Virus record (IMG/VR): IMGVR_UViG_3300023174_005819
Span: 1 to 64,000 of that record
Strand: one strand, 5' to 3'
DNA from: a virus
DNA length: 64,000 bases
Below, piece by piece: positions 2,106 to 61,793 of this stretch. The notes beneath the pieces are model-generated. The model was not told the origin of the DNA, did not search any database, and was given only the letters and a program-made list of their open reading frames with translations. Each line of letters opens with the position of its first letter. The first letter of the stretch is position 1. The translations under genes were made by a program, and so were the position numbers.

Positions 2106-3218
2106 TTATTCGTAGCTATCTCTGTCAATAGCAATCACATACGGAAATCTTGGCACTTCATCTGGCGTATAATTGAAGAATTTTATGGTAGCTTTCTTGC
2201 CAACCAAATCATTTCTTTGCTTGTAAAGTTCTTTAAGATAACCAAAATCACCTTTGATATTACTCTTGAAGTATTTACCTTTAGCATTTGTAAATTCCAT
2301 ATAGCCAGCAGTTCCTTTGCGGTTGCCTTCGCCTTCTTTTACTCCATTGATAATAAACTCTGCATCCATAAACTCTTTTCTTTTAAGAAGAAACTTACTA
2401 CGCTTATTCTCGTAAGGTCTATTTAGTCTAATCATTTGACCTTCGTAACCATTCTCCATATACATTTCATAAGATTCAGTAAGTTCTTTTTCGCTATTTA
2501 CTTTTAAAGTAGTAACGACAACAATGCTTGTGTATTTTCTTTTAGTAAGAGCATTGGAAACTGCTTCATACCTTTCGTAGAATAAATCTTTCTCATTTAA
2601 CAAACCAATTTTAGGTGCATCATAAACCCAATATTGAATACTATCTGCACTTTCTTCTAGTTCTTCGTCAGTAGGTTTAGTTCTTTTTACAAGAGAGCAA
2701 ATCTTATTAAAATCATTTGCAAACTTATCACAATATAACTCACCATCAAGAATTGCATTAGGATAATCTTTAAAGAATAAATCTAAATTCTGGCGAATGT
2801 GCGGTGCAGAAATAATCTTCTTGCCATTTCTGCTAAACATTCCATCTTTAGTTACGATACAACGAATACCATCAAGTTTAGGTTGGCTATAAACTGGATA
2901 AGCAATTTCGTGATCTTCATACTTTTGTGCAAGCATTGGCTCAAAGTATTGAACCTTATTAATATCTTTGATAGATTCAAAGTAACCAGATTCTAATTTC
3001 TTCTTGCGTTTTGCTTCTGCTTCTTTGATCGCTTGTTCTTCTGGAGTAGTAGCATTTGCTCTGCCAGCATTTTTAATATCACAATCACTCCAATTATTAG
3101 TAATCTTTTCACCATCTGTTTGACCAGAGATCGTGCGATATTGATTTCCTTTAACTTCGATAGTCCATTCTTGGACTTTGCCAGTTTTAGTCTTTTTATA
3201 AATTGTAGGTAACTTCAT
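2106..3218 (-). CDS. lig: ATP-dependent DNA ligase
   Basis: Adenylation motif QPKLDGIRC, plus LDGELY, YEGQMIR, LLKRKEF and a C-terminal PRFP. Confidence 0.93.
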   Translation of the reverse strand: MKLPTIYKKTKTGKVQEWTIEVKGNQYRTISGQTDGEKITNNWSDCDIKNAGRANATTPEEQAIKEAEAKRKKKLESGYFESIKDINKVQYFEPMLAQKYEDHEIAYPVYSQPKLDGIRCIVTKDGMFSRNGKKIISAPHIRQNLDLFFKDYPNAILDGELYCDKFANDFNKICSLVKRTKPTDEELEESADSIQYWVYDAPKIGLLNEKDLFYERYEAVSNALTKRKYTSIVVVTTLKVNSEKELTESYEMYMENGYEGQMIRLNRPYENKRSKFLLKRKEFMDAEFIINGVKEGEGNRKGTAGYMEFTNAKGKYFKSNIKGDFGYLKELYKQRNDLVGKKATIKFFNYTPDEVPRFPYVIAIDRDSYE

Positions 3219-3224
3219 ACTTCC

Positions 3225-3253
3225 AGTATATGCTGGACTAATAGATTCGTCAA
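3225..3253 (-). promoter_or_regulatory. sigma70-type promoter for the ligase (near-leaderless)
   Basis: TTGACG (3253-3248), 17 nt, TATACT (3230-3225), 6 nt, ATG. Confidence 0.75.
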
Positions 3254-3435
3254 ATTTTGTTTCTTTTTGATTTAGAAGGTTTTGCGACTTTGATTAAAGA
3301 AAAACTTCCATCTTTATTATAATGCCAATCAATAGTATCTCCGATTTCCCATCCCATTTTTTTCATCAATTTATCTGGAAATTCTAGATATAAATGTCCA
3401 TCTTCTGATTTTTGGATTGGAATATTATATTTCAT
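3250..3435 (-). CDS. AbrB/MazE-like small DNA-binding protein
   Basis: LYLEFPDKLMKKMGWEIGDTIDW matches the swapped-hairpin AbrB pattern. Confidence 0.6.
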   Translation of the reverse strand: MKYNIPIQKSEDGHLYLEFPDKLMKKMGWEIGDTIDWHYNKDGSFSLIKVAKPSKSKRNKI

Positions 3436-4172
3436 ATAAGTTCAAGTCTAATATAATTATTTGATATGTCAAGAGTTTTATATTGTCTAGGTTGCCAATC
3501 TGGTTTCTCTTGAGCAATTTGAATATTTCGCCTAAAGTCCATATTCTTTTGATCTAAACAATGGATATATCTTAAATAATCATCGTGATTAATATGATAC
3601 ATATATCTTTTTATATCAAAGAATATTATTCTTTGTAGAGATTTAAATTCTTGCCACCAGTTTTTTACTTCAATTTTTTTTGCTAGTAATCTATTATATA
3701 AATCTTCATCTTCATATCCCCAAATTGGCATTAAATTCTCATTGTAACCCTTACCAAAATCTTTTTTATTAACCAAAAGAAATCCCATTGAGCCAAGATA
3801 AAAAGAAGCACATCCAGTAATAAAATAATTAACTAATTCTCCATTATTAATATTTTGATATTTTAACCAAGATTCATTTAAATTTATATAATCTACATCT
3901 AATTTAAGTAAAACTTTATTGCTTGGGTCTGTGTATTGGGATGCTAGATTAAGAGCTAAACATCTATAATAATATTTTTGATTTTCTACTCTTATAACTT
4001 TTATATTATATTCTTGCATTTGTTTTATTAAAACTTTATTATTTATGATTGGTTGTTTAGAATCCCAATCTACTATTACAAAATCTTTTATAAGAGGAAT
4101 TTTTGTCCAAGTTGGAAGCATTTGTTCCAATCTGTCTGTTCTATTTTTTAATGCTAAAATACAAGAAATCAT
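3432..4172 (-). CDS. GT-A glycosyltransferase (GT2/GT7-like)
   Basis: VIVDW, LKLDVD (DxD) and GYNENLMPIWGYEDEDL (galactosyltransferase C-terminal motif). Confidence 0.75.
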   Translation of the reverse strand: MISCILALKNRTDRLEQMLPTWTKIPLIKDFVIVDWDSKQPIINNKVLIKQMQEYNIKVIRVENQKYYYRCLALNLASQYTDPSNKVLLKLDVDYINLNESWLKYQNINNGELVNYFITGCASFYLGSMGFLLVNKKDFGKGYNENLMPIWGYEDEDLYNRLLAKKIEVKNWWQEFKSLQRIIFFDIKRYMYHINHDDYLRYIHCLDQKNMDFRRNIQIAQEKPDWQPRQYKTLDISNNYIRLELI

Positions 4173-4978
4173 ATAATTCTTTTTAAGGTAAAATAGTTAT
4201 CTGATTTATATATTATATCATATTTTTGCGGAGTCCATATAGTTTTATTTTTTGCTATAAAATCATTAATTGACGCTTTTCTGAATATATCTTCTTTTAT
4301 GGAATTATTTGATATTTTATAGTTTCCTTTTAAATTCGCTACTCTTTCTTCATCTGATGTATTAATATTAGAAATATATTTTTGTATATTAAAGAAAATT
4401 ATTTTTCTTGAATTTGTCCATTCAGAAATTTGAGGTCTTTGAAATTTAGAAAGTAAATAACGATCTAATCTTAAATTTAAATCAATATCGTCATAACCCC
4501 AAACTGCTTCAAAATTTTCATTGTAGCCTTTCACATTTTCAAAATCTTTTTTATTTACCAAAAGAAATCCAGAAGAATCTTTAGAAAATAAATTACTTCC
4601 AGATAAAAAATATTTGTTTAAGATATATGGAGAATTTTTTGATTCGTCAAGTTTAATTAAATTTAAATAATTAATCCAGCTTGAATCAATATTTGAAGAA
4701 TCTGCATCTAGTTTTAGTATAATTTCATTATCTATATATTTGCTTGCTAAATTCCAAGCAAGACAACGATAAAAAAATTTCTCATTTTCTACTCGAATTA
4801 TTTTAATATTTTTATTTTTATAAGTTTCGTTTTTAATAATAGGACTTTCTATAATCGGTTCGTTAGAACTCCAATCAACTATAACAAAATCTTTAATCTC
4901 TGGAATGTTAGTCCAAGTTGGAAGTATTTGTTCTAACTGCTTTGTTCTATTCATTACGGATATTATACAAGAGATCAT
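4169..4978 (-). CDS. GT-A glycosyltransferase (GT2/GT7-like), paralogue of 3432-4172
   Basis: LKLDAD and VKGYNENFEAVWGYDDIDL; N-terminus closely similar to the neighbouring gene. Confidence 0.75.
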   Translation of the reverse strand: MISCIISVMNRTKQLEQILPTWTNIPEIKDFVIVDWSSNEPIIESPIIKNETYKNKNIKIIRVENEKFFYRCLAWNLASKYIDNEIILKLDADSSNIDSSWINYLNLIKLDESKNSPYILNKYFLSGSNLFSKDSSGFLLVNKKDFENVKGYNENFEAVWGYDDIDLNLRLDRYLLSKFQRPQISEWTNSRKIIFFNIQKYISNINTSDEERVANLKGNYKISNNSIKEDIFRKASINDFIAKNKTIWTPQKYDIIYKSDNYFTLKRII

Positions 4979-8091: not shown

Positions 8092-8264
8092 TTGTAAATA
8101 TATGTAGATGAACCATTATGGTTTTTTAATTCCTTTTTAATCAACGACTTATCTCTTTCGTCTGACCAATTTATACTATCAAAGTTTTCTTTAAACCTAT
8201 TAGAGAAACAATTTCTTGCTTTATCGCCTTTTCCAGCACCATTATTTGAACTTTTTTCGTTCAT
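8088..8264 (-). CDS. small hypothetical phage protein (58 aa)
   Basis: Hand-translated MNEKSSNNGAGKGDKARNCFSNRFKENFDSINWSDERDKSLIKKELKNHNGSSTYIYK; stop overlaps the next start (ATGA). Confidence 0.65.
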   Translation of the reverse strand: MNEKSSNNGAGKGDKARNCFSNRFKENFDSINWSDERDKSLIKKELKNHNGSSTYIYK

Positions 8265-8360
8265 ATATTTGGCTTTTTTCTGTTAGCAAATATGACTATA
8301 TTTGGAAATATCGCGTTAGCAAATATAAGTATATATTTGGCTAAATCTCGTTAGCAAATA
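8264..8360. repeat. three tandem copies of a 29-bp element TATATTTGG-N9-GTTAGCAAATA
   Basis: Copies at 8264-8292, 8297-8325 and 8332-8360 with different 9-nt cores (CTTTTTTCT, AAATATCGC, CTAAATCTC). Confidence 0.85.
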
Positions 8361-8654
8361 TTACTTTTTGAAATCACCAAGATCACGATCAAAAGAAAAC
8401 TTTCCAGGTTTTTCTACAAGACCTTCATAAGTTTCCTCTGTGCATCCAGCCATTTCAGTAAATGGAGCTACTACTGCAAAAATTCCAAATGCACCAATAG
8501 TTGCTGCGGTTGAGATTGGGCGAACAAATACTAAATCTCCCGCTGATAGAAAACCATCTGCTACTGGAGTAGACTCGCTTTGAGTTCCAGAATCAGAGAA
8601 GCCTAAAGAGGCAGAAAATAGTGCTATTAATACTAGTGTTTTAATTTTATTCAT
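8361..8654 (-). CDS. exported/membrane hypothetical protein
   Basis: Signal-peptide-like N-terminus (MNKIKTLVLIALFSASLGFS) and hydrophobic DLVFVRPISTAATIGAFGIFAVVAPF; own TTGACA-17-TATAAT promoter. Confidence 0.6.
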   Translation of the reverse strand: MNKIKTLVLIALFSASLGFSDSGTQSESTPVADGFLSAGDLVFVRPISTAATIGAFGIFAVVAPFTEMAGCTEETYEGLVEKPGKFSFDRDLGDFKK

Positions 8655-8716
8655 ATTAATATATTATATATAAAACATAGATATTTGTCAATTATATTTT
8701 ATAATATTTATATCAA

Positions 8717-10290: not shown

Positions 10291-10317
10291 ATCTAATGAT
10301 TATAGATTTAAATAAAA

Positions 10318-10404
10318 CGGAACGAGTAGGATTCGAACCTACGGATAGAGTTAACCATCGGAAGTTTAGTAAACTTCTGCTTTAGACCACTCAGCCATCG
10401 TTCC
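10318..10404 (-). tRNA. tRNA-Ser with anticodon ACU (reads AGU)
   Basis: GGAACGA/TCGTTCC acceptor stem, D arm GCT-GAGTGGTCTAA-AGC, anticodon stem GAAGT/ACTTC with loop TT-ACT-AA, long variable arm, T arm GTAGG-TTCGAAT-CCTAC, G73; CCA not encoded. Confidence 0.9.
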
Positions 10405-10408
10405 AATG

Positions 10409-10480
10409 CTCCCAAACTAGGATTTGAACCTAGAACAGCCTCGTTAACAGCGAGGTACTCTACCATTGAGTTATTTGGGA
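10409..10480 (-). tRNA. tRNA-Asn(GUU)
   Basis: TCCCAAA/TTTGGGA acceptor stem, anticodon arm CCTCG-CT-GTT-AA-CGAGG, T arm CTAGG-TTCAAAT-CCTAG, G73. Confidence 0.92.
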
Positions 10481-11769: not shown

Positions 11770-12765
11770 TTAAATTGAAGATCTGTTTCCAGAGAATACT
11801 ATTTCGCAATATTCTTGTAATTGGGTTACTATATATTCTTTCATTGAATCAAAATTAATAAAGTCAATATGACTTGGTCCTTTTTCGTCATCTGTTATAA
11901 TTTTATATTTATTAATATCTTCTAAGATATCGCATTTATTTATGATTAATTTATTTGTGCCAGAAATTTTAACTGCTTGTTTTAAGTGATTTAATCTTAA
12001 CCAATTAACTATTCTTTTGCGACCAGTAGTTGATCCAAATTCTTTACCAAGTTCTATGATTTTATTGAGATATTGATCATTCCATAACGATTCTGAAAAG
12101 AGAGGATCAACCCCACTTTTAGTATCATAAATTTTAGCAACACCAATAATATCTCTTATTTTTTTAGGAGAAAATCCTAGCGAACAAGCTGAATAAGGTA
12201 GCGTTTCACTACTAGTAACATAAGGATAGTTTCCATAATTTAAGTCTAGCCAAAAACTTTGAGCCCCTTCACAAAGAATATTGCCATATAGTTCGCCATC
12301 CCAAATATATTTTTTATCTAGATAATTTCCAGCAAGCCTTCCAATTCGTAAAGCTTTATCGGCGTATGCAGGAGCAATTCCTTGACCAGTTGTTCCGAGT
12401 TTAGGTTTTAAAAATTTAAGATCATATTGGATATGTCTTTCAGTAATTATATGAGCTTTTGGACTAACTTTGATTAATGATGTATCAAATCCTTCTTTTT
12501 TAAGATAATCTATTTCGTCAAAAAATTTGTCAATATTGATAACACAATTTGGACCAATGATGCTAAGTTTATTTTGGAAAACTCCACAAGGAATAATATG
12601 AGTTTTATATTTTTTATCATTGAGATAAACTGTATGACCTGCATTGGGGCCACCATTCCAACGACAAACAGCATCATAATTTTTACTAATAGCATTACTT
12701 ATTTTACCCTTTCCTTCATCACCCCAAGCTAAACCAAATATAATATCTACATAATTGACCATCAT
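11770..12765 (-). CDS. purA: adenylosuccinate synthetase (short form)
   Basis: WGDEGKGK, GGPNAGHT, GTTGQGIAPAY, EGAQ, YPYVTSS, EFGSTTGRKR, NKCD. Confidence 0.92.
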   Translation of the reverse strand: MMVNYVDIIFGLAWGDEGKGKISNAISKNYDAVCRWNGGPNAGHTVYLNDKKYKTHIIPCGVFQNKLSIIGPNCVINIDKFFDEIDYLKKEGFDTSLIKVSPKAHIITERHIQYDLKFLKPKLGTTGQGIAPAYADKALRIGRLAGNYLDKKYIWDGELYGNILCEGAQSFWLDLNYGNYPYVTSSETLPYSACSLGFSPKKIRDIIGVAKIYDTKSGVDPLFSESLWNDQYLNKIIELGKEFGSTTGRKRIVNWLRLNHLKQAVKISGTNKLIINKCDILEDINKYKIITDDEKGPSHIDFINFDSMKEYIVTQLQEYCEIVFSGNRSSI

Positions 12766-20558: not shown

Positions 20559-21668
20559 ATGCAAAAACAAGAATTCAAAGAAGCGTTAAGTTACGATGAT
20601 ATTTCGTTGCTCCCAAATTTTTCAGATATCACTTCCAGAAAAGAAGTAGATACAACTACTAAAATTTCAAGAAATTGTAGCATTAAGATTCCAATCGTAC
20701 TTTCTCCAATGGATACAGTATCTTCTGTTAAATCATGTATTAAGATGAATAAACTTGGTGCAGCTGGAGTTTTACATAGGTTCATGTCTGTTGATGATCA
20801 AAGAGCTAAAGCTAGAATTATTAAAGATGAAAGCGATTTCTGTGTCACAGCAATTGGTCTTAAAGATGCAGAAGAAAGAATTAGAGCTACTAGCACATTT
20901 ACTAATCTTTATTTTTTAGATACTGCTAATGGTTTAGCTAAGAATGTAGAAGATTTTCTTAGATGGTATAAAACTTCTGGATTTTCTCAAGATGTTATAG
21001 TAGGTAATACTTTAACAAAAGAAAGTGTTTATAGGCTAGCTAATCTTAAAGCAGATGGATTTAGGCATTTAATTGGTCCAGGTTCTATGTGTTTAACTCA
21101 AGTCAAAACTGGAATTGGATGTCCAAGTCTGACTGGTAATTATTACGCTTGGAAAGCTGTAAGAAATTGGGAACTTTCTCAAGTTGATTTATTTAAACAA
21201 GATAAACCAAATCCATCTCATAGACCTAGTATTCTTGCTGATGGTGGTATACGATATCCAAAAGATTTAGTTAAAGCTATTGCTAGCGGATGTGATGCTG
21301 TTATTTGTGGAAGAATTTTCGCTGGACTATCTGATGTTGTTGATGATGAGAATATCATTGAAATAGATGGCAAAAGATTCGCTAAATATAGAGGAATGGC
21401 TAGTCAAGATGTTGTCGAAGATTATGACTTATATGATGGAACTAAAAAGAATCTATTTGTAGAAGGAGATAATACTTTAATTCCAATTATTGAAAATAAA
21501 TCTATTGAAGATATTGTTTATGATTTCACTAATGGTTTAAGAAGTTCTATGAGTTATCTTGGGTTCAGGAATATACAGGATATGCGCGGAGGTCTATGGA
21601 ATAATACTATACAAGCTGTTAGAAATAGTCCGAATAGTATGTATGAGGGATTTGCTCATGGAAAATAA
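20559..21668 (+). CDS. IMP dehydrogenase/GMP reductase family enzyme without CBS domains (probably GMP reductase-like)
   Basis: SPMDTV, catalytic loop IGPGSMCLT, ILADGGIR, KYRGMAS, GLRSSMSYLG; the flap lacks the IMPDH Arg-Tyr dyad. Confidence 0.85.
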   Translation: MQKQEFKEALSYDDISLLPNFSDITSRKEVDTTTKISRNCSIKIPIVLSPMDTVSSVKSCIKMNKLGAAGVLHRFMSVDDQRAKARIIKDESDFCVTAIGLKDAEERIRATSTFTNLYFLDTANGLAKNVEDFLRWYKTSGFSQDVIVGNTLTKESVYRLANLKADGFRHLIGPGSMCLTQVKTGIGCPSLTGNYYAWKAVRNWELSQVDLFKQDKPNPSHRPSILADGGIRYPKDLVKAIASGCDAVICGRIFAGLSDVVDDENIIEIDGKRFAKYRGMASQDVVEDYDLYDGTKKNLFVEGDNTLIPIIENKSIEDIVYDFTNGLRSSMSYLGFRNIQDMRGGLWNNTIQAVRNSPNSMYEGFAHGK

Positions 21669-21964: not shown

Positions 21965-22103
21965 GTATTACGCTATTTTCAGTAAAAGCGATAATTTTCT
22001 TCATGGAGTATTTCCACCATCACAAGATGGTCTTTCTAAAGCTAAAGAATATTTACTAAAATTAGATCCATCAAATAAAAACTATAAGATTAAAAAATAT
22101 TAA
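21921..22103 (+). CDS. small hypothetical protein
   Basis: 60-aa ORF overlapping the end of the preceding gene. Confidence 0.5.
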   Translation: MNMKKKNKQKKQKNKYYAIFSKSDNFLHGVFPPSQDGLSKAKEYLLKLDPSNKNYKIKKY

Positions 22104-23086
22104 TTCTTAATATTTGGATCCGCTAAGTCTGGATTATGTTGAGCCTTAGTTCCTCGTTTGAAATTCCTATGTAGATTTTCATATAATATTTTAAATGTAT
22201 CTAATGGTTTTTCTATGACATTTTGAATTTTTTGCTCTGGTTTTTGTGCTTCTTGATTTTCTATTTTCTTAATGATTGAGTTATAAGCTATAACTAAACA
22301 TACTGCTAGTGGGTCAAAAACAATAACAATTAATATAATAAATATTCTAACTGCAGTTTCTATCTTTAATCCAAATGCGTCTGCTACAAATTTAAATGTA
22401 CCAATTTCGCCTTTTGTATTATCGCTTTCAAGTTTCATTATTTCTTGGCTATTTTCTAAACTTTGTTTTTCTAGGTTTTGAAGATCAGAAGTTACTGTGG
22501 ATATTTGAGAGAATAAGTTATTAATATTACTTTGAGATCCTTCTACTATCTTATTTTTGCTTTCTACTAATTTAATATCTGTTACTTTTTCAGTTTTAGC
22601 TGAACTAAAGAATCCTCCGCCAGTAATTTTAGTTGTAGTTACGTCTTGTTTAACAGCATTATCTAATGATGTTTGATATGTCTTTTGTAATTCTATGAGA
22701 TCTTTAAGTTTGTTCTTATTGAAATCTATTTGTGAAATATAAAAGTTTTGTTGAGATTTTAAGCTTTGAATTTTATTTAAATTCAAGGAATATTGAGAAA
22801 AATTACGTTGAAAAGCGTCAGAAAGAAAACCAAAAATACCAAGACTTGTTATGCACATAAGTAATATAGTTGCGGATAGCATATACTTTTTAAGTAAATT
22901 ATGTATTGATGACCAATATCTATAAAGATAACTTGCGCTTACTAATTTCGCTACTTCCAAACTTCCAGCCATAACCGCAACACTCCAAAAACTTGCTGCA
23001 AATAAAAGAGCAATTCCTTTTACAGAAAAAAATGCAGCACAAGAGGCTAAAATAAATGCAGACAACCCTAGTATATATTTAAACAT
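22100..23086 (-). CDS. multi-TM protein with a long coiled coil
   Basis: About three N-terminal TM segments (GSLEVAKLV, ITSLGIFGFLS), coiled coil, then a C-terminal TM (IVIVFDPLAV). Confidence 0.7.
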   Translation of the reverse strand: MFKYILGLSAFILASCAAFFSVKGIALLFAASFWSVAVMAGSLEVAKLVSASYLYRYWSSIHNLLKKYMLSATILLMCITSLGIFGFLSDAFQRNFSQYSLNLNKIQSLKSQQNFYISQIDFNKNKLKDLIELQKTYQTSLDNAVKQDVTTTKITGGGFFSSAKTEKVTDIKLVESKNKIVEGSQSNINNLFSQISTVTSDLQNLEKQSLENSQEIMKLESDNTKGEIGTFKFVADAFGLKIETAVRIFIILIVIVFDPLAVCLVIAYNSIIKKIENQEAQKPEQKIQNVIEKPLDTFKILYENLHRNFKRGTKAQHNPDLADPNIKN

Positions 23087-23119
23087 AATATTTAATACAA
23101 ATTACACAGATATATCTTA

Positions 23120-23470
23120 TAATAATTAACTTTGATTCAATATGGTTTTCTGAATTATTTAACTTTTCTTTGATATCCAAAAGGGCTTTACCTCCAGATT
23201 TTATATATCTGAAGTTGAGTATTATCAATCCAACTTTTCTTTTGACTCCAAATTTTACTGCGATCTCAGCAGTAAACGGGCCATCGCACTTATGGATCAG
23301 AGGTAGCTTCGATCACTACATTCTGCGATGCCTATAGCTACATTTCCTTATTTAGCCATATAATGTACAAATTAAGGTTTTAATAGTTGTCAGCCCTTAT
23401 GACATTGCTATCTCAGGGATTGATAGTTGATTTTTTGACATCAACAAACTGCTCTAATTGGGAACTATGT
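23120..23470 (-). ncRNA. candidate structured non-coding RNA of unrecognised class (3' end uncertain)
   Basis: ORF-free region with its own TTGACA-17-TAGTAT promoter, at least 7 stem-loops, two possible pseudoknots, and G-U pairs favouring the minus strand. Confidence 0.6.
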
Positions 23471-23476
23471 ACTTAC

Positions 23477-23505
23477 ATACTATTCTAATTTTCAACTTTT
23501 GTCAA
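23477..23505 (-). promoter_or_regulatory. sigma70-type promoter pointing into the ORF-free structured region
   Basis: TTGACA (23505-23500), 17 nt, TAGTAT (23482-23477). Confidence 0.7.
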
Positions 23506-23521
23506 ATTTATTAATAAAAAC

Positions 23522-23556
23522 TTGCTTTATTTTATTAAAAGCTTTATAATGTGTAA
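23522..23556 (+). promoter_or_regulatory. tmRNA promoter (sigma70-type with an adjacent GTGTAA motif)
   Basis: TTGCTT (23522-23527), 17 nt, TATAAT (23545-23550), immediately followed by GTGTAA. Confidence 0.7.
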
Positions 23557-23578
23557 GATTAGTTAGTTCTTTAACATT

Positions 23579-23966
23579 GGGCGCGTACTGGTTTCGATTT
23601 TAGAAATCGGAATTAAAATGCAAGTGGAGGTTGAATCGAGGACTCCTTAAAAAGTTTCACTTATATTAACTGCCAAAACAGCAAAATATAAAGGTCATAT
23701 TTCTGCAAGAGCTTCTCTTGTTGAATTGACCGCTTCTGTAGCCTAAGTTCTACAGCGTGACTACCTTGACACATCTATTGGATAGTTGCGTAATTAGATG
23801 TTTGAGTATAATAAGTTTTTTTATTCTTTTTATATTCAATATTCAAAATAAAATCGCTAAGTATGTTTGTTCTTTATCTATACAAAGCTAAAAACAAAAA
23901 GAACTAAACTTGTAGTATTTTAATTTAGATTTTTAAAAGACAAAGGTTCAATTCCTTTCGCGTCCA
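23579..23966 (+). ncRNA. ssrA: tmRNA
   Basis: 5' GGGCGCGTACTGGTTTCGA pairs with 3' CGCGTCC-A, giving the G3:U70 Ala identity pair; T arm AAAGG-TTCAATT-CCTTT; tag ORF after TAACT at 23672-23746 = AKTAKYKGHISARASLVELTASVA*. Confidence 0.92.
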
Positions 23967-23998
23967 AGTAAACGAATCTCTTAGCCTCCAATTTTATA

Positions 23999-24367
23999 GT
24001 GAAATCAAAAAGAAATAAAACAAGATTAGATCAATATAGTCCATTTAAATACTCTTTAAATAAAGCTAGATCACGAAGTAAATCTAGAAATGAAGTTACA
24101 GATTTAACTCTTGAATATTTAAAAGAGATTTGGGAAAATCAAAAAGGATTATGTTCATATACTAATATTAAAATGGAACTACCAAGAAGCTCCCAAGATG
24201 AAGATATCAAGAAAAGTCCAACCAAACTAAGCCTTGATAGAATTGACCCAAGTATAGGATATATAAAAGGTAATGTTGAATTTGTATGTTATTGCGTTAA
24301 TGTTATGAAAAATGATTTCACAAAAGAACAGATGGTACATTTTATAAATCAAATTAAAAATAATTGA
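23999..24367 (+). CDS. HNH-type endonuclease
   Basis: QKGLCSYT...SLDRIDPSIGYIKGNVEFVCYCVNVMK, a beta-beta-alpha-Me motif common in phages. Confidence 0.75.
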   Translation: MKSKRNKTRLDQYSPFKYSLNKARSRSKSRNEVTDLTLEYLKEIWENQKGLCSYTNIKMELPRSSQDEDIKKSPTKLSLDRIDPSIGYIKGNVEFVCYCVNVMKNDFTKEQMVHFINQIKNN

Positions 24368-24390
24368 AGTAACATTTTTTATAATTTAAA

Positions 24391-24396
24391 GTGTAA
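24391..24396 (+). promoter_or_regulatory. GTGTAA putative late-promoter motif
   Basis: 8 nt upstream of ATG 24405; the same motif and spacing recur before several other genes. Confidence 0.55.
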
Positions 24397-24404
24397 TAAA
24401 GATT

Positions 24405-61172: not shown

Positions 61173-61465
61173 TAATCTTTATACTTTATTAATTGATTTC
61201 TAACAAAATAAAGATTAATAAAAAATCCACAAAAAGCACTAAATATATTACTCAAATAAGGATGTGTTAGTCCATAAAATGGATTAATAAAAAAACTTAT
61301 AAATAAAGATATCCAAAAACTAGAACATTCATGACACAATAATAGTCGATTTATATATGGTATTCTTGCTATTAAATTTCTAAATGGTCTAGTTATTTCA
61401 GTATCGCTCCAAGCGAAACAAACTCCTAAACAGACAAATAGATAAATAAAAAAACAGTAAAACAT
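61169..61465 (-). CDS. DUF1360-like membrane protein
   Basis: PFR...LLLCHECSSFWIS (CxxC-W) flanked by TM segments. Confidence 0.6.
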   Translation of the reverse strand: MFYCFFIYLFVCLGVCFAWSDTEITRPFRNLIARIPYINRLLLCHECSSFWISLFISFFINPFYGLTHPYLSNIFSAFCGFFINLYFVRNQLIKYKDY

Positions 61466-61471
61466 TTTTAA

Positions 61472-61753
61472 TTATTTAATTCGTGAATTCAAAAAATTCT
61501 CAAGAGTAATTAACATTTTCTTTGTTGTTTCATCACTAAAAAGATTATTGAAGTAATCAGTTTCTGCGTCAAATTTAGATATTAAATATGATATAACTCT
61601 TTTAACGCATGGACAACTTACATTACGCTTTGCTACAGTTAAATCAGCTAAAATTTCTGGAAATTTATCTTTTAAAGAATTAAAAATTTTAGGATTTTGC
61701 AATATACCATTTAAATATAAATTAGAACTAATATATTTTTTAAATTCCGACAT
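61472..61753 (-). CDS. hypothetical protein
   Basis: 93-aa ORF containing NVSCPC. Confidence 0.55.
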   Translation of the reverse strand: MSEFKKYISSNLYLNGILQNPKIFNSLKDKFPEILADLTVAKRNVSCPCVKRVISYLISKFDAETDYFNNLFSDETTKKMLITLENFLNSRIK

Positions 61754-61793
61754 ATATAGAATTATATATTATTTACAGTATTATTTCAATATT

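Follow-up and report, generated by a model that had tools for sequence, protein, structure and literature searches.

A conserved, pseudoknotted RNA gene beside a phage tmRNA gene probably represents an undescribed family of noncoding RNA in uncultured freshwater phages

What occupies the gap in front of the transfer-messenger RNA (tmRNA) gene of a large freshwater phage? The DNA analyzed here, called the window, is a stretch of 64,000 nucleotides (nt), the first 64 kb of an 87-kb viral contig in IMG/VR (record IMGVR_UViG_3300023174_005819; completeness rating about 56%); its G+C content is ~30%, and all coordinates are positions in it. Between the tmRNA gene and a leftward gene for a 328-residue protein (22100-23086) lie about 490 bases in which the only open reading frames (ORFs) are one of 55 amino acids on the plus strand (23170-23337) and one of 49 amino acids on the minus strand (23079-23228). 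A preliminary description of the window had noted a promoter followed by no long ORF, and had proposed that a large structured noncoding RNA (ncRNA) of an undescribed class is transcribed from it, divergently from the tmRNA. It had also called the gap the longest gene-free stretch, although at the level of 100-residue ORFs two gaps are longer (8092-8716 and 61173-61793). The proposal itself has held up: promoter and start are conserved, the homologues covary, no Rfam family matches, there is no coding signal, and the element is single copy. We conclude that the minus strand of 23470..23160 is very probably an independent gene for a multiply pseudoknotted, trans-acting ncRNA of about 311 nt, from an undescribed family that is so far confined to one clade of freshwater phages. 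The elements of the locus are as follows.

23505..23477, minus strand: sigma-70-type promoter, with the -35 hexamer TTGACA at 23505..23500, a 17-nt spacer and the -10 hexamer TAGTAT at 23482..23477
23470..23160, minus strand: ncRNA gene of about 311 nt, with its +1 predicted at 23470 and conservation stopping at 23160 (GAAAAGUUA)
23579-23966, plus strand: phage tmRNA gene, full-length and separate from the ncRNA (ARAGORN; Rfam RF00023, 106.8 bits)

Is the element present in other phages? A search with the neighboring 328-residue protein led to 34 related viral loci, nine of which contain the ncRNA as a block of 308-310 nt that is 88-95% identical to 23160-23469. An exact 24-mer from the invariant center retrieved 36 viral contigs, all 36 with the full ncRNA, and a 23-mer from the 3' part added 7 further loci (ncRNA in 7/7). 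A gapped two-anchor pattern gave four loci, two with the ncRNA and two (L079 and L081) with chance matches inside coding sequence. Scanning metagenomes yielded the ncRNA in 48/48 loci, many of them the same contigs as in IMG/VR. Altogether 93 copies were fetched from IMG/VR and metagenome contigs. Our alignment, A2, holds the 64 distinct full-length sequences, that of the window included; three copies cut by the end of their locus (L063, L073 and L115) were excluded. Mean column identity in A2 is 91%, and the lowest pairwise identity, measured among the first 35 sequences, is 85%. Compared with the window, the ncRNA has a mean identity of 93.8% versus 87.4% for the adjacent tmRNA, and it is the more conserved of the two in 44/44 distinct comparisons; it is held at 85-100% identity in phages whose neighboring proteins have drifted to 65-75%.

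The carriers found so far belong to a single clade of uncultured phages from fresh water, whose genomes measure about 130-170 kb. A covariance model built for the ncRNA (R1; 326 positions, 63 pairs) scores it at 406 bits, the sole match in the window and genome. Three relatives with a completeness of 86-100% likewise have one copy each. R1 detected no ncRNA in 23 loci that lacked an nhmmer match, and none in five fragmentary contigs of distant relatives (4-36% complete), which are too partial to be informative; because its E-values are miscalibrated for short partial matches (many with E < 0.05 in 9 kb of Cellulophaga phage phi14:2), bit scores were used instead. Neither blastn with the ncRNA nor megablast with the surrounding 20 kb found a match among 50,697 phage records, and the DnaE-like polymerase is at most 32% identical to those of cultured phages. 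Two invariant words of the ncRNA (20 and 21 nt) have no occurrence in 185,579 species genomes (one per species), a scan with exact words that misses diverged copies. The ncRNA region is nevertheless widespread in the environment: 14 DNA sequencing runs from nine studies contain 39-76% of the sampled words of 23100-23980, and their habitats are lake, river, freshwater, aquatic and unspecified metagenomes.

The promoter was correctly recognized from the window alone. It scores 10/12, and its -35 hexamer TTGACA is present in 52 of the 53 distinct upstream sequences of homologues, the remaining one having TTGAAT; a -10 hexamer of the form TAnnnT then follows TTGACA. In the first nine homologous loci the flanks, the spacer and the discriminator vary freely while both hexamers are constant. 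Moreover, the conserved block that opens with ACAUAG begins at a fixed distance from the promoter, at the position expected for +1 (23470), and we therefore regard the predicted 5' end as well defined.

Does the conserved stretch act as RNA? We derived a pseudoknotted model from the aligned sequences and evaluated it against A2, with pairing partners slid by 1-3 columns and column shuffles as controls. Standard pairs fill 98.4% of the 4841 cells of the model, compared with 35.0-46.6% when the partners are slid. Sixteen pairs are changed on both sides (2-6 in the slid controls), as are 149 cells (4-24). Column shuffles, which ignore relatedness, gave a mean of 8.3 pairs changed on both sides, and 0/500 reached the observed values. 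Covariation among homologues, one of the checks proposed at the outset, is thus present, and it is strand specific in at least eight helices, pseudoknots included. Beyond the model, a search for extra covarying pairs found only lineage-correlated columns. The folding energy of 23100-23480 is unremarkable and does not set the region apart (z = -1.8 for minus and -3.0 for plus), so the case for structure is built on covariation among relatives.

The strand of the pairing agrees with the direction of the promoter. G-U pairs had been noted on the minus strand only, and they occupy 479 cells in the minus-strand sense versus 13 when the model is mirrored to the plus strand, which also lowers pairing from 98.4% to 88.8%. 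This bears on the view that the conserved block is a DNA-level element, such as a replication origin, a packaging site or a recombination hotspot, placed where leftward genes give way to rightward ones. The locus does lie where two gene blocks diverge, close to the minimum of cumulative GC skew in the window, and its surroundings vary: some relatives have tRNA genes there, others the tmRNA module. However, compensatory changes keep the pairing on one strand, and the 479 G-U cells would be A-C on the other; a conserved promoter stands exactly in front of the block, the alignments showed neither iterons nor tandem repeats, and the block stays intact across different genomic contexts. We consider a DNA element most improbable.

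The helices of the model, all on the minus strand, are listed below.

23453-23451 with 23163-23161, and 23448-23446 with 23168-23166: P1, tentative closing helix (RNA 23-25/313-315 and 28-30/308-310)
23445..23426: PA, hairpin GUUGAU/AUCAAC (RNA 31-36/45-50), 99.5% paired
23425-23417 with 23231-23223: PB, long-range helix of 9 bp, UAUCAAUCC with GGAUUGAUA, which encloses the core, 100% paired
23404..23388: PC, hairpin UGUC/GACA (RNA 72-75/85-88) with AAGGGCU in its loop
23398-23392 with 23187-23181: PK, pseudoknot of the PC loop AAGGGCU with AGCCCUU about 200 nt away, all 7 pairs kept in 64/64
23377-23373 with 23350-23346: PD, CCUUN/NAAGG, which forms an H-type pseudoknot with PE (PD/PE span 23333..23377)
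23360-23354 with 23339-23333: PE, UAUGGCU/AGCUAUA, interleaved with PD, 97.8% paired, no covariation
23330-23324 with 23288-23282: PF, CAUCGCA/UGCGAUG, invariant apart from one U-G, which encloses PG
within 23282..23330: PG, RNA 156-166 with 177-185, with the 10-nt loop AAGCUACCUC
23276..23254: PH, hairpin UUUACUGC/GCAGUAAA with the 7-nt loop UGARAUN, 99.4% of cells paired
23215..23190: PJ, hairpin ACUUC-AGAU/AUCU-G-GAGGU with one bulge, covarying

In PH, 6/8 pairs are changed on both sides, and in PB three pairs are (A-U to G-C, U-A to C-G and C-G to U-A). In the remaining covarying helices, the closing pair of PA is G-C in 57 sequences, A-U in 4, G-U in 1 and unpaired in 2; that of PC is U-A in 42 and C-G in 22; one pair of PG is A-U in 53 and G-C in 9; and in PJ one U-G pair becomes C-G in 8 sequences while another is G-C in 51, A-U in 4 and G-U in 5. 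In the divergent copy L090, PG appears, as we read the alignment, to be rebuilt as a perfect 8-bp stem. The preliminary description had suggested that a loop TAAGG pairs with an upstream CCTTA; this is PD, and it covaries (one pair is C-G in 46, U-A in 10 and A-U in 6). It had also pointed to the distant complementarity of AAGGGCT and AGCCCTT, now PK, which is essentially invariant, its sole variation being one A-to-G change that retains the pair as G-U; the pairing is therefore consistent, without proof by covariation. P1 is 100% paired but weakly supported, with one-sided changes only (A-U/G-U and G-U/A-U), and an alternative to it, RNA 32-39 with 299-306, is likewise kept.

Most of the hairpins first proposed survived the comparison. 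GTTGAT/ATCAAC, TGTCA/TGACA, TATGGCTA/TAGCTATA, CATCGCA/TGCGATG (23330-23324 with 23288-23282), TTTACTGC/GCAGTAAA (23276-23254) and CTTCAGAT/ATCTGGAG lie where they had been placed, and few or none of the 64 sequences lack them. In TGTCA/TGACA the fifth pair, A76-U84, is unpaired in 36/64. Four further helices were not supported or compete with better-supported pairings. Each pair of CTATC/GATAG is conserved in 62-64 of the 64 sequences, yet the helix overlaps the covarying long-range helix TATCAATCC/GGATTGATA (three covarying pairs). GTAG/CTAC is kept in 63/64, the exception being L090, which by our reading of the alignment loses two of the four pairs while the nested PG is rebuilt. AAGTTG/CAACTT has A-C mismatches in 8/64 and shares bases with the supported helices PB and PJ, and ATAGTT/AACTAT has a C-A mismatch in 18/64.

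The same substitutions speak to the suggestion that one of the two small ORFs is a protein-coding gene. Both ORFs exist in the window, and the 55-residue one is intact in 34/64 sequences, but in the other 30 it is broken by 1-nt indels or stops; it starts with TTG without a conserved ribosome-binding context, variable sites are distributed 28/25/35 over the codon positions with no third-position excess, and the substitutions are explained by helix covariation. A coding function is almost certainly not the reason for the conservation.

Could the RNA instead be a cis-acting leader, a 5' untranslated region (UTR) or riboswitch-like element, of gene 22100-23086? In the window this same-strand gene for a predicted membrane protein starts 73 nt past the conserved end, with no terminator between. 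In most relatives, though, the next gene is convergent (171, 112 or 109 amino acids); only a minority of loci have a same-strand gene next, and it is not the same gene in all of them. The 328-residue gene itself is 0.5-1.4 kb off in some relatives, or the ncRNA lies elsewhere on the contig, and ten contigs hold the two more than 4 kb apart. The downstream gene thus varies; the RNA is not the mere 5' UTR of 22100-23086, a possibility that the preliminary description had raised, and a leader role is exceedingly unlikely. The conserved promoter, the strand-specific covariation and the independence from neighboring genes are together those of a stand-alone ncRNA gene.

Is it, then, a known RNA? 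All 4227 models of Rfam 15, applied to the window at gathering level, matched only the tmRNA and three tRNAs. With E up to 10 on the 601 bases of 23000-23600, only Termite-leu (16.6 bits versus a cutoff of 51), Corona_pk3 and sroH appeared, and with E = 5 on three divergent homologues only the tmRNA and a chance match of AbsR25 outside the ncRNA. The initial impression that hallmarks of RNase P, signal recognition particle (SRP) RNA, 6S RNA and introns are missing agrees with these searches. The models of ROOL, GOLLD and OLE had no match in the window, the gap region or the three homologues. Group I and II introns were likewise without a model match, and the element lies between genes with its own promoter. 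Y RNA and YrlA had no Rfam match either, and the Ro/TROVE protein family is absent from one complete relative (G006, 100%) and two nearly complete ones (G007 and G008), in all of which positive controls were found.

A divergent or permuted version of a universal RNA, for example RNase P RNA, might have been missed by covariance models. Its size of about 311 nt would fit, as would the possible closing helix between the ends, the long-range pseudoknot flanked by the A-rich conserved GGAGGUAAAGCCC, and the tRNA-like neighbors (the adjacent tmRNA, and tRNAs at other places in the genome). In RNase P RNA, helix P4 has a universally conserved bulged U and is accompanied by the CR-I and CR-V sequences. 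The long-range helix AAGGGCU/AGCCCUU is instead perfectly paired in 64/64, lacks that bulge, and has a strand order unlike that of P4. At the E-values given above (10 for the 601 bases, 5 for the three homologues), the models for RNase P, SRP, 6S, tmRNA and introns all failed to match the ncRNA, and the two invariant-word scans found no cellular homologue. We judge this origin very improbable.

What might such an RNA do? The parts of it that are both unpaired and invariant comprise the 5' leader and a pair of UGAGA motifs, the first in the junction between PB and PC (23415-23411), the second in the PH loop UGARAUN; to these add the 10-nt loop AAGCUACCUC and two purine-rich tracts of 21 nt, a repeat already noticed in the window:

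23252..23232, minus strand: purine-rich tract 1, UUUGGAGUCAAAAGAAAAGUU, identical in 55/64
23181..23161, minus strand: purine-rich tract 2, UUUGGAUAUCAAAGAAAAGUU, differing from tract 1 only in the middle

We hypothesize that a rigid, knotted core would present these single-stranded elements to a protein or RNA partner, with the two near-identical tracts, the UGAGA motifs and the AAGCUACCUC loop as putative docking elements, and that the ncRNA may act as a scaffold or decoy in the takeover of host translation or RNA metabolism, probably alongside the phage tmRNA. Such a role would explain the linkage to the phage tmRNA (64/72 informative loci). The tmRNA gene lies divergently upstream of the ncRNA in 64 loci, and is missing from 8 that have at least 1300 nt upstream, while a further 21 have too short an upstream stretch to be scored; a contig present in both IMG/VR and a metagenome counts twice here. 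The usual gap between tmRNA and ncRNA is about 292 nt, with a 69-residue ORF between them (e.g., L039:4832-5041, minus strand) that has no Pfam or PHROG family; the ORF is missing from the window, so that the gap here is only about 105 nt. The preliminary description had raised a possible co-regulation with the tmRNA; the back-to-back arrangement of promoters, ~105 nt from the tmRNA, is found in a minority of loci (the window, L050 and L057).

Two other readings of the conserved elements deserve mention. The ncRNA could be a phage-made machine for handling tRNA or tmRNA, in which the UGAGA motifs would build a platform of two T-loops onto which the elbow of the tmRNA or tRNA docks. Docking of the elbow by a double T-loop platform is used by RNase P, T-box leaders and the ribosomal L1 stalk, and the PH loop UGARAUN matches what we take to be the T-loop pattern. 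As an RNA-only or RNA-led enzyme, the ncRNA would then process, chaperone or retarget a phage tmRNA that has no phage-encoded SmpB: this protein is absent from the one complete and two nearly complete relatives (86-100%), in which positive controls were found. A search for Gp23 was uninformative, as it matched nothing, the controls included. We think that this machine is quite unlikely. The other reading is a self-assembling "ornate" RNA like ROOL, GOLLD or OLE, a homo-oligomeric, RNA-only particle whose invariant loops would be intermolecular contacts. The ncRNA is a highly structured phage RNA that stands alone next to a tRNA-like gene, a setting typical of ROOL and GOLLD (PMC12286853). Conservation of loops and junctions in our ncRNA is extreme. 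Against this, the ROOL, GOLLD and OLE models do not match, the palindrome GAUC in the PH loop is not conserved (the loop is UGARAUN), and the ncRNA is roughly half as long as ROOL and much less than half as long as GOLLD. We consider an ornate particle unlikely.

Several results weigh against our conclusion or its extension to a scaffold or decoy. At the 3' end, no intrinsic terminator was found downstream of the gene, where the sequence differs between genomes, and the end at 23160 is hence placed by conservation alone. The homologues are 85-100% identical and come from a single phage clade, and much of the ncRNA is invariant; the shuffle control has no correction for relatedness, and for PF, PK, PE and P1 the argument is one of conservation without covariation. 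The linkage to the tmRNA is not absolute, as 8/72 informative loci have no tmRNA. The twin tracts appear to change together, the variable base being C/C in 56 sequences, U/U in 8 and mixed in none; however, the eight U/U sequences group as a single clade in a tree from which those two columns had been left out (1 change; Shimodaira-Hasegawa-like approximate likelihood ratio test [SH-aLRT] support 86), and the co-change is thus a single event and not strong evidence. Complements of the tract in the window with up to 2 mismatches number 5 versus 5.6 expected, which gives no enrichment of targets. Nor does the tmRNA look like a pairing partner: the duplex energy of the two whole molecules is no better than chance (-95.8 versus a shuffle mean of -100.1), and their longest perfect complement is 8 nt, where shuffles usually have 8-9. 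The specific docking mechanism, scaffold or decoy, is offered tentatively, as a possibility that we hold well short of even.

As to expression, six metatranscriptome runs contain 11-18% of the sampled words, and four RNA runs from four studies were compared with 22700-24400 as assembled contigs, which carry neither strand nor transcript ends. tmRNA-like contigs occurred in 4/4 runs, and the ncRNA in one, X15; in the three runs with tmRNA-like contigs only, these may come from other organisms. The X15 contig (514 nt, depth 28.8, 16 letters unlike the window) covers 23160-23430. It stops at RNA position 46 and extends 243 nt past the conserved 3' end into the flank of a relative, and it could stem from transcriptional read-through, from the mRNA of a convergent gene or from contaminating DNA in the library. 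Because it comes from a relative with different flanks, the parts of the window that it leaves uncovered are uninformative. Expression of the ncRNA is thus weakly indicated, by one unstranded metatranscriptome contig.

The surroundings of the locus show further features. The RNA module lies in a hotspot where gene content varies from one relative to another. The tmRNA has a predicted basic tag of 24 residues ending in SVA, and directly behind it lies an HNH/endonuclease VII-like gene (23999-24367, plus strand; phrog_3322, E = 3.6e-26). The 328-residue protein on the other side (22100-23086, minus strand) is predicted to be a membrane/coiled-coil protein and has no Pfam or PHROG family; it is 65-95% identical in 32 of the 34 related viral loci and 32-36% identical in two distant ones. 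The slot upstream of its gene is where the tmRNA/ncRNA module lies in the window, and in many relatives (also L011-L024) a tRNA-Ser with the rare anticodon ACU is kept, often in this slot. In the window, tRNA-Ser(ACU) adjoins tRNA-Asn(GUU), at 10317-10405 and 10408-10480, both on the minus strand. Farther away, a 331-residue protein (11770-12765, minus strand) matches phrog_1211, "2-aminooxy adenylosuccinate synthetase" (PurZ/PurA-like, E = 4.6e-65), and a GMP reductase-like gene (20559-21668) has apparent dCMP deaminase and ribonucleotide reductase genes nearby; together these genes hint at a modified nucleotide metabolism.

Why is the ncRNA of interest? At least nine studies have sampled it, and it is frequent in metagenomes of lakes, rivers and other fresh waters; with its promoter, ends, helices and exposed elements mapped it is a compact and well-delimited candidate for biochemistry. 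It also suggests that a partner RNA may accompany phage tmRNA genes. Should a partner or an activity be found, it would shed new light on the takeover of host translation or RNA metabolism by large freshwater phages.

To our knowledge, large (>200 nt) bacterial or phage RNAs with intricate pseudoknotted folds are rare, and those we know of with a solved function are almost all ribozymes, ribonucleoprotein cores or self-assembling particles. Among ribozymes, bacterial RNase P RNA (RNaseP_bact_a/b) resembles the ncRNA in length, in the possible terminal closing helix, in a long-range pseudoknot beside an A-rich conserved strand and in the association with tRNA-like genes; it differs in that its models do not match at E = 10, the ncRNA helix is unbulged with another strand order, and no cellular homologue was found. 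The stable RNA species 1 and 2 of phage T4 (rnaC and rnaD) are small stable phage RNAs encoded with tRNA genes, and they are much shorter than the ncRNA. ROOL (RF03087) and GOLLD (RF01998) are often phage- or prophage-borne and are much larger than 311 nt. According to PMC12286853, they typically lie beside tRNA-like genes. They share with our ncRNA that they are large, intricately folded, stand-alone RNAs next to genes of the tRNA type. They differ from it in that there is no similarity in sequence or by covariance model, and the ncRNA is found in a single narrow phage clade.

Abundant or conserved intergenic RNAs are also known from Cellulophaga phage phi14:2, for which bioRxiv 10.1101/2020.03.07.982082 reports highly transcribed long noncoding RNAs at the g004-g005 and g005-g006 junctions. 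We rejected a relation to them, as the best score of R1 in the first 9 kb of that phage was 12.4 bits over 70 nt, which is noise. The stretch of the phi14:2 genome (L132) reported to be so transcribed is gene-free (2904-4602), former annotations of small ORFs there having been removed in the RefSeq record. The DNAVirus_X catalogue of structured RNA candidates (Fremin et al. 2023, PMC10690425) was likewise drawn from IMG/VR intergenic regions with covariation evidence; its motifs are 29-151 nt long, and the 311-nt ncRNA exceeds these lengths and would not be there as a whole, although single hairpins may be listed. No description of the ncRNA was found in the searchable literature, a search that did not extend to the supplementary tables of PMC10690425. 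We would file the ncRNA as a new family among the orphan, highly structured, stand-alone phage RNAs that lie beside genes of the tRNA type.

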